Shown: positions 952-1,443 of the stretch, one piece after another | How the letters are laid out: the number at the start of each line of letters is the position of its first letter | How positions within the stretch are numbered: the stretch's first letter is position 1 | Position numbers and translations under genes: made by a program | Origin: Escherichia coli | Lineage (GTDB): Bacteria; Pseudomonadota; Gammaproteobacteria; Enterobacterales; Enterobacteriaceae | Reading direction: 5' to 3' (one strand) | NCBI RefSeq assembly: GCF_003334255.1 | Contig: NZ_QOWU01000146.1 | Length of the DNA stretch: 1,840 nucleotides | The notes under the pieces: generated by a model | The model's input: the letters and a program-made list of their open reading frames with translations, nothing else | The model's database searches: none | Told to the model about the DNA's origin: nothing

Positions 952-1131
952 TCATTTCTTCTTTTTCTCTGGTGGAACCCGATGAATAAGAGTTGCACTG
1001 GTTTCCGATGAGATGGCGATATACTCGGGCAAAGTATGCTGGCAGTTTTCCAACTGGTCAAAAATACCTGCTCTCGTCTGTTGCAATGCCTGCAGCATGC
1101 GGCGGCAATGCGCCTTGCTTTTACTAACCAT
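952..1131 (-). CDS. Small hypothetical protein, 59 aa, lysine-rich C-terminus
   Basis: Minus-strand ATG at 1129-1131 is preceded by GAGGAAGGAAAG (GAGG = forward 1140-1143, 8-nt spacer); stop is the complement of 952-954. Product: MVSKSKAHCRRMLQALQQTRAGIFDQLENCQHTLPEYIAISSETSATLIHRVPPEKKKK. No signal peptide or hydrophobic segment. The longer ORF-track version (start 1305) has no RBS and overlaps the upstream gene in another frame. Confidence 0.4.
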   Translation of the reverse strand: MVSKSKAHCRRMLQALQQTRAGIFDQLENCQHTLPEYIAISSETSATLIHRVPPEKKKK

Positions 1132-1192
1132 CTTTCCTTCCTCTATCAGTCGCTGCGTGAACTCATCATGTAATACCAGGTAAATGCGGATG

Positions 1193-1443
1193 TTATCGGT
1201 TTTGGCTACGCAGCATAGTACAAAACGGACAGGTGCATCCCGGGACGGGGGAGGCGTCACATGTCCCTGTGATGGTTGTTTCGGGTAATGCACTGTGTGG
1301 GGCATAAAAATGTCCGATAATTTTACTTTCTACCGCAGTTAGTTGATTCGTTGGTCCTGGTAGCACATTGGGCGAGGATTTAAATGCCAGGCAACTGAAG
1401 GATGATGTTGCAAGGGAGATAGCGAGAATATTTCTGATTTTCA
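1193..1443 (-). CDS. Small secreted cysteine-rich protein, 83 aa precursor
   Basis: Minus-strand ATG at 1441-1443 (GAGG about 10 nt upstream); stop is the complement of 1193-1195. N-terminus MKIRNILAISLATSSFSCLA looks like a Sec signal peptide with a likely cleavage after CLA. The mature part ends in a four-cysteine cluster, TGTCDASPVPGCTCPFCTM. Rare codons are present (AGA, CTA, TTA, GGA, CGA). The ORF-track start at 1513 adds 23 residues ahead of the signal peptide and is disfavoured. Confidence 0.55.

Follow-up and report, generated by a model that had tools for sequence, protein, structure and literature searches.

A moron cassette flanked by the lysis genes and cos in a phage-21-like prophage

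We analysed a stretch of 1,840 nucleotides (nt) of Escherichia coli DNA (the window). In a lambdoid, phage-21-like prophage, it is the interval that separates the lysis cassette from cos. Its minus strand holds two small open reading frames (ORFs). One encodes a protein of 83 amino acids (aa) that begins with a predicted signal peptide and is called gene 1 here; the other, downstream of it, encodes 59 aa and is called gene 2. A preliminary description had left two readings of this arrangement side by side, namely two small genes or a single ancestral gene broken by a frameshift. We found that the answer is the ordinary one: the region holds two genes, or at least one intact gene and a separate ORF. 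The cassette formed by genes 1 and 2 is an accessory "moron" between the lysis genes and cos, an arrangement typical for lambdoid phages. The features of the window are collected in Table 1.

The geometry given in the preliminary description was largely borne out by the list of ORFs. One minus-strand frame is open over 1193..1513 and contains an internal ATG that starts the 83-aa product (MKIRN...); the second is open over 952..1305 (117 aa), with the internal ATG at 1131 starting the 59-aa product. The signal-peptide frame stops at 1193-1195, the second frame is open from the ATG at 1305 down to 952, and the two are open together across 1193-1305, a length of 113 nt (about 112 nt had been given). 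The gap of 61 nt that separates the first stop (1193) from the second ATG (1131) was found as described, as was the ribosome-binding site of the 59-aa ORF, a Shine-Dalgarno sequence (GAGGAAGGAAAG) directly before this ATG. The start of the 83-aa ORF, placed at 1443, had to be corrected to the ATG at 1444-1442.

The window is 100% identical to E. coli G1/2, and its positions 202-1592 share 98.6% identity with phage 21. The stretch 940-1460 was found at an identity of at least 95% in approximately 1,223 of 5,426 complete E. coli genomes, and E. coli Nissle 1917 carries the locus. The virion chromosome ends on its right side at cosQ, and no other gene on that side is as close to cos as gene 1.

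Table 1. Features of the window and of its two minus-strand genes
Feature	Position	Strand	Remarks
Rz/lysis protein, end	1-191		annotated context
TonB C-terminal domain lipoprotein gene	503-829	+	annotated context
Hairpin with 12-bp stem	920..946		starts 6 nt after gene 2 stop; fold -19.6 kcal/mol, z = -2.70
Gene 2, 59-codon ORF and stop	952..1131	-	PGAP WP_000253883.1; phrog_4843
Gene 2, A5 run (EKKKK tail)	962..966	-	second one-base deletion site in error-prone assemblies (L018-L022)
Intercistronic spacer, 61 nt	1132..1192	-	holds gene 2 Shine-Dalgarno GAGGAAGGA (1135-1143)
Gene 1, 83-codon coding sequence and stop	1193..1444	-	ORF, homologues, dN/dS
C-terminal motif G-T-C-x3-P-V-P-G-C-x-C-P-F-C-T-M-L-R, gene 1 residues 60-79	1208..1267	-	alignments A1, A2
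C5 homopolymer (G5 on plus strand)	1247..1251	-	one-base loss fuses gene 1 to gene 2 frame
Signal peptide, gene 1 residues 1-20, MKIRNILAISLATSSFSCLA	1385..1444	-	predicted signal-peptidase I cleavage A20/F21
Shine-Dalgarno GAGG of gene 1	1454..1457	-	followed by spacer CATCATCAA, conserved across genera
Perfect 12-bp palindrome TGTGCCGGCACA	1486..1497		42-53 nt upstream of gene 1 ATG; candidate operator or 5'-UTR hairpin
Fur-type 7-1-7 box TGATAATTATTCTCG	1543..1557		2 mismatches to TGATAATNATTATCA (13/15); ~100-113 nt upstream of gene 1, 6 nt from cosQ
cosQ (GGGTCCT)	1563..1569	+	transferred from the curated phage 21 record by alignment
Small terminase subunit (Nu1)	from 1788		downstream of the cohesive-end site

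Gene 1 is an intact gene under purifying selection

A search of 5.8 billion proteins with the 83-aa product gave 22 hits. Among these are homologues of 83-84 aa from Klebsiella, Citrobacter and Salmonella (subspecies salamae, indica and others) that share 54-72% identity with it. The stop position is the same in all of them, and their C-terminus, GTCDASPVPGCxCPFCTMLRS, is near-invariant. When 1.84 billion representatives were searched with a profile, about 20 further clusters came to light, nearly all of 79-86 aa. A genome scan with alignment A1 found matches only in Enterobacteriaceae. The diverged orthologues of the family are 79-86 aa long, nearly all of them 80-85 aa. The 83-aa protein gave no match in Pfam, NCBIfam, PADLOC, PHROGs or the PDB sequence profile.

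We then compared the family at the DNA level. With the 96%-identical allele of locus L023 representing the gene 1 of the window, the ratio of non-synonymous to synonymous substitution rates (dN/dS; Nei-Gojobori, 83-aa frame) was 0.09-0.28 in all unsaturated pairs, at dS values of 0.2-3. In an alignment of nine loci, similarity starts approximately 10 nt before the ATG (ATCATCA(A/G)ATG in all loci) and ends at the stop codon. Gene 1 is therefore intact and under purifying selection, and it is inherited as a single-gene unit, found in prophages, in genomic islands, on a plasmid and at ordinary chromosomal sites.

The surroundings of these copies vary. In other lambdoid prophages either a DUF3950 gene or a convergent ORF comes after gene 1; one homologue lies in a Salmonella island with Bor, omptin and an NEL effector, and another is carried by a Klebsiella plasmid with a decayed cos site. 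On this plasmid (CP024459, locus L004) the decayed lambda-type cos (...GGTCACCGCCCCATAAC...) lies approximately 150-200 nt upstream of the 83-aa gene and is still recognisable, suggesting that the plasmid copy descends from a lambdoid prophage fragment. In Citrobacter sp. JGM124 the gene sits between fecIR and a convergent response-regulator gene that starts 50 nt past its stop. The chromosomal copy of Citrobacter koseri (L011) is convergent to icd, 169 nt away. Phage 21 and e14 integrate at icd, yet this copy has a Zur-type box (11/12) and lacks phage genes in its vicinity. At the place equivalent to the palindrome listed in Table 1 for the 5' region of gene 1, loci L009 and L016 carry a different perfect inverted repeat (GTTACGT-GTTA-ACGTAAC).

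The 59-codon frame is probably a second gene

Gene 2 matches phrog_4843 end to end (E = 4.4e-47, profile positions 1-59 of 59). Its strong Shine-Dalgarno sequence is well spaced from the ATG, and the intercistronic spacer folds at -7.8 kcal/mol (z = +1.84). Because it is less structured than shuffled controls, the spacer holds no terminator and leaves the ribosome-binding site accessible.

To this can be added the pattern of substitutions relative to L023, the most diverged E. coli allele (92.6% identity overall). Gene 2 differs from it by 3.3% substitutions and no indels, compared with 9.1% for the flanking non-coding DNA (2.7-fold, Fisher p = 0.018); the values were 2.4% for the TonB C-terminal domain gene and 3.6% for gene 1, so that gene 2 has changed as little as the neighbouring coding sequences. 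The spacer, at 8.2% substitutions, is unconstrained. The gene 2 frame is intact in all alleles examined, and it is free of indels in the 1,223 genomes as well as in the 92.6%-identical allele.

All of this speaks against the strongest alternative, according to which only gene 1 is real and the 59-aa ORF is a fortuitous frame in the 3' untranslated region (UTR) or terminator region of gene 1, or some other non-coding element; an Rfam scan of the window, moreover, matched no family at E <= 1. On that alternative, gene callers would be attracted by a purine-rich stretch before an ATG. In its favour, the curated phage 21 record does not contain gene 2. Beyond near-identical copies of the module, no homologue was found among 5.8 billion proteins or in any diverged locus, and the ORF is absent downstream of gene 1 in every one of these loci. 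Pfam, NCBIfam, PADLOC and the PDB profiles gave no match. The differences from L023 comprise three synonymous and three non-synonymous changes, which do not demonstrate selection on the protein, and every known variant of the gene 2 protein is an amino-acid change. A function of the RNA or DNA could equally account for the low rate of substitution.

Weighing both sides, we consider it unlikely that gene 1 stands alone. Gene 2 is probably translated, and its product is probably a small cytoplasmic protein. The two-gene alternative of the preliminary description thus holds in that separate ORFs of 83 and 59 aa fit all the evidence, with translation of the shorter one being a prediction. A comparison of gene 2 with the DUF3950 ORF found at the same position in other prophages showed the two to be unrelated, and a literature search for WP_000253883 returned nothing.

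The hairpin that follows gene 2 has a T-rich run after it on the plus strand. It is likely to act as a bidirectional terminator, serving both the transcript of genes 1 and 2 and the convergent TonB C-terminal domain gene.

The overlap of the two frames and the origin of fused alleles

We next asked what the shared open frame across the 3' half of gene 1 means. When the 83-aa gene was recoded at random with synonymous codons, 24% of the recodings left the +1 frame without a stop across the 46 codons in question, which makes the overlap unremarkable. The same frame is open across the 3' half of gene 1 in 4/8 diverged homologues, where it meets a stop 13-65 nt beyond the end of the gene. The longer second frame is open by chance, due to the encoding of the conserved C-terminal motif.

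A single ancestral gene of about 164 codons, broken by a frameshift and present in the window as a pseudogene or a sequencing error, would seem to find support in continuous ORFs of 163-165 aa in databases (P0030, P0038) and in two complete genomes, where they are annotated by the Prokaryotic Genome Annotation Pipeline (PGAP). In the database proteins ...DASPVPGC... is replaced by ...DASPSRDAP..., and P0030 ends in ...EKRRNEQ. At the DNA level we traced these fused versions to a shortening of the C5 run at 1247-1251 to C4, accompanied in L018-L022 by a shortening of A5 to A4 at 962-966. The L018-L022 assemblies have 7-9 gap openings per 1.4 kb, whereas phage 21 has 3, and the terminase, Nu1, TonB C-terminal domain and Bor genes next to the locus are fragmented in them.

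Among the 1,223 complete genomes with the locus, the exact C5 allele over 64 nt was present in 1,129 and the exact C4 allele in 2. The latter are E. coli 25DN and 3385 (L041, L042), in which PGAP annotates a fused "hypothetical protein" of 163 aa (WP_251120840.1, WP_250386232.1). The annotation of 25DN marks a frameshift in the adjoining terminase gene; strain 3385 has intact neighbours, and its clean-looking C4 copy may be a genuine rare mutant. The fused alleles are thus rare one-base losses in the C5 run.

The orthologues point the same way. Those of Salmonella, Klebsiella, Citrobacter, Buttiauxella, Kosakonia and Phytobacter keep an ORF of 83-84 aa with the same stop and without the downstream half, instead of an uninterrupted frame of about 160 aa, and tblastn and blastn searches with the 59/117-aa frame and with the DNA of 900-1195 gave no match in any diverged locus. 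The preliminary description had named a stop conserved in orthologues as the observation that would count against its single-gene reading, and this is what we observed. Since continuous frames occur only as rare deletions in the C run, and since purifying selection acts on the 83-codon unit, the frameshifted-gene model fails; we regard it as extremely improbable, and the region is almost certainly not one broken gene.

The position of the C5 run inside the frame overlap, with the +1 frame open onward to the end of the 59-aa ORF, also invites the idea that programmed ribosomal frameshifting or phase variation at C5 yields both the 83-aa product and a fusion of about 163 aa, and rare C4 alleles do exist. 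Programmed frameshifting fails because neither the C run, which reads TCTCCTGTT, TCACCCGTT and so on in homologues, nor the downstream frame, which is conserved in no homologue, is maintained. As to phase variation, C4 occurs in 0.16% of the complete genomes, far under the level typical for phase-variable loci, and slipped-strand switching usually involves runs longer than five. Neither mechanism has any appreciable likelihood.

Equally improbable is a reading in which the real genes are the plus-strand ORFs CPT_21_74 and CPT_21_75 (window 867..989 and 1036..1173), annotated with ribosome-binding sites in the phage 21 record OL657228, and the minus-strand ORFs are their shadows: the second of them varies in length even among near-identical phages (a single-nucleotide polymorphism at 1171 makes it 45 aa in the window, as against 60 aa in phage 21), the minus-strand 83-aa frame is under clear purifying selection across genera, and 6/9 substitutions in gene 1 relative to L023 affect the third base of a codon in the minus-strand frame.

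The gene 1 product is predicted to be exported and carries four invariant cysteines

By inspection, the N-terminus of the gene 1 product has the features of a signal peptide: it starts with MK(I/V)(R/K)..., continues with a hydrophobic core and ends with (C/A)-x-A|F, as expected for a basic n-region, a hydrophobic h-region and an AxA-type site with small residues at -3/-1. In an alignment of 28 sequences the invariant positions are A20, F21, C62, C70, C72 and C75.

A lipobox pattern of the PROSITE PS51257 type, with Cys18 as the lipid-bearing candidate, was matched in 12/12 close homologues, and we therefore considered whether gene 1 encodes a lipoprotein. In the wider family, however, Cys18 is replaced, mostly by Ala, in 16/28 members (...ALA|FQ, ...AMA|FQ), while the A|F junction never varies. 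The lipoprotein reading was rejected for this reason, and the site is better explained as one for signal peptidase I. Most likely the product is exported by Sec, cleaved between A20 and F21 and released as a soluble periplasmic protein of approximately 62 aa starting with Phe. In the mature protein the four invariant cysteines would form two disulfides or serve as metal ligands.

AlphaFold2 models had a mean confidence (predicted local distance difference test, pLDDT) of 47 with 14 sequences and 57.5 with 28 sequences; apart from one helix in the centre and one at the C-terminus, both of low confidence, no structure was predicted. Two Asn-rich, eukaryote-like proteins of 611-627 aa (P0093, P0096) contain 4-5 repeats of P(I/L)PGCNCPKCT(N/E)LR(N/K), close to the C-terminal PVPGCxCPFCTMLRS of the gene 1 family; this may be convergence or a shared mini-domain.

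Chromosomal relatives of gene 1 lie behind Zur-type operators

Several relatives of gene 1 have neighbours connected with metals. The member in L027 lies 143 nt downstream of a CobW/COG0523 gene, that in L024 adjoins a ZnuABC-type transporter and PyrC- and HemB-like genes, and the plasmid-borne member in L004 is found beside Fur-family and CobW genes, a position that may be secondary.

For 18 loci, we scanned the 250 nt that precede the gene for the Zur core TGTTAT-N3-ATAACA (TGTTATNNNATAACA), accepting matches of at least 10/12; as a control for the pattern, the genuine E. coli znuA-znuC operator scores 11/12. Matches were found in 10/18 loci, five of them perfect (Buttiauxella noackiae, Kosakonia, two Phytobacter species and L027). 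The background was 17 hits in 128 kb, or about 0.03 per 250 nt, and several of these hits are the three perfect boxes before cobW of L027. The ten loci with a match are without exception ordinary chromosomal sites, and the eight without one are all copies on mobile elements, namely three E. coli prophages (the window included), the Klebsiella plasmid and four Salmonella island copies. This division suggests that the gene 1 family is a component of the Zur regulon and that the mobile copies were captured without the operator. To judge from these upstream matches, the chromosomal members are very probably regulated by Zur. A role of gene 1 in metal homeostasis is conceivable, though somewhat doubtful.

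A Fur-type box beside cosQ

In the window the upstream region of gene 1 holds a different element, the Fur-type box next to cosQ, for which the chance expectation is 0.02 per window. A box at the same place, approximately 135-140 nt upstream of the 83-aa gene, matches at 15/15 positions in L009 and at 14/15 positions (13/14 specified) in L016. Phage lambda (NC_001416) has a perfect TGATAATNATTATCA at ~48456-48470 (L030 2157-2171), at the same site beside cosQ, and the next minus-strand ORF after it encodes an unannotated DUF3950 protein (MSTKNRTRR..., Pfam E = 3e-20). Since lambda keeps a perfect copy without gene 1, the box belongs to the cos-proximal moron slot and not to gene 1. This slot may be iron-regulated, or the box may have a function in packaging; that iron regulates the cassette is offered here purely as a hypothesis. 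Full-text searches found no literature linking a Fur box to cosQ, or ylcI to Fur.

Proposed explanation and comparison with known systems

Taken together, we think it likely that the region carries two independent small minus-strand genes in a phage-21-like prophage, with the regulatory and export properties described above. The ancestral task of the gene 1 family would be in the response to zinc starvation, as suggested by its regulon context (Zur operators, with COG0523/CobW and ZnuABC neighbours). The prophage copy would have lost the Zur box and, lying downstream of the lambdoid Fur-type box by cosQ, might respond to iron in lysogens. Because the 61-nt spacer contains no terminator, gene 2 would be co-transcribed with gene 1, and it would be translated from its own strong Shine-Dalgarno sequence. 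The common transcript would end at the hairpin 920-946, shared with the convergent TonB C-terminal domain lipoprotein gene.

A more far-reaching version of this proposal, which we put forward tentatively and hold to be rather unlikely, is that gene 1 is a phage-captured member of an undescribed family of periplasmic four-cysteine mini-proteins, part of the Zur regulon in Enterobacteriaceae chromosomes, and that it was moved beside cosQ, behind a Fur-type operator and next to a TonB C-terminal domain lipoprotein, where it remodels metal acquisition or the traffic of TonB-dependent receptors in the lysogen under metal starvation. If this were true, settings for the remodelling would include the host gut and exposure to calprotectin.

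In addition to what was said of gene 2, several observations weigh against the explanation. The best Zur match within 250 nt upstream of the window copy is 7/12, and the Fur-type box of this copy carries two mismatches. The link of that box to gene 1 is only positional, as lambda has the one without the other. For the gammaproteobacterial Zur consensus and the Fur consensus, the znuA-znuC control is the only backing obtained here. A scan for the sigma-70 consensus between cosQ and the ATG of gene 1 found no convincing promoter, the sole nearby minus-strand match overlapping the start codon. Cysteine ligands are unusual for periplasmic zinc proteins, and the low-confidence AlphaFold models lend no structural support to any biochemical role of gene 1.

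The closest parallels in position are the morons of lambdoid phages, such as lambda bor and the DUF3950 ORF by lambda cosQ, which occupy the same slot as small genes that run opposite to the late operon and have a terminator of their own. The slot is a mosaic, with other prophages carrying DUF3950, DUF1398 or Bor there. The genes described here have no sequence similarity to Bor or DUF3950, and gene 1, unlike those morons, is also an ordinary chromosomal gene with a Zur box. According to the genome announcement of phage 21, the morons of that phage differ from those of lambda (PMC9119081). As for gene 2, the end-to-end match with phrog_4843 is uninformative on mechanism, since this group has no function assigned and no diversity beyond the present module.

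With respect to regulation, gene 1 may be compared with ZnuA and ZinT/YodA, which are periplasmic proteins of the Zur regulon in Enterobacteria. Members of the gene 1 family are likewise predicted to be Sec-exported and lie behind Zur-type operators that score like that of znuA-znuC, by COG0523/CobW or ZnuABC genes. However, there is no detectable homology, the mature gene 1 protein is far smaller (approximately 62 aa), its metal binding is putative, it conserves four cysteines rather than clusters of His, Asp and Glu, and the copy in the window has no Zur box.

A further comparison is with T5 Llp, phi80/N15 Cor and lambda Bor, small phage-encoded exported proteins or lipoproteins that are expressed in the lysogen and modify the envelope or block receptors. 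Gene 1 resembles them in being small, prophage-borne and predicted to be exported, and its close homologues fit the lipobox. It differs in showing no sequence similarity to them, and its product is probably soluble, Cys18 not being conserved.

Annotation of the region and the neighbouring lipoprotein gene

RefSeq/PGAP annotation has no feature for gene 1. RefSeq thus annotates the lineage-restricted 59-aa ORF and omits the conserved, selected 83-aa gene, in a module present in about 1,200/5,426 complete E. coli genomes, while in two genomes a spurious or mutant 163-aa fusion is annotated as a gene. On the opposite strand, the curated phage 21 record places its two plus-strand ORFs (867-1173) antisense to genes 1 and 2. 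What is mildly new here is the conserved gene missing from RefSeq, the instability in length of the antisense phage 21 ORFs and an uncharacterised, probably Zur-regulated family. A small exported family without a Pfam, NCBIfam or PDB counterpart offers a handle on the enterobacterial response to zinc starvation and on the role of a widespread prophage moron in its host.

GenBank submitters often start gene 1 at a non-conserved ATG further upstream (1513), which gives a version of 106 aa, and the PhiR47_2 record calls the 117-aa frame. The plus-strand gene at 503-829 encodes a lipoprotein of 108 aa with an LAVGC lipobox and little beyond the TonB C-terminal domain (TIGR01352, E = 2e-12). Such a product could act as a periplasmic decoy that interferes with TonB-dependent receptors, phages or colicins. 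Its label in PHROGs, "Rz-like spanin" (phrog_1267), looks like a misnomer.

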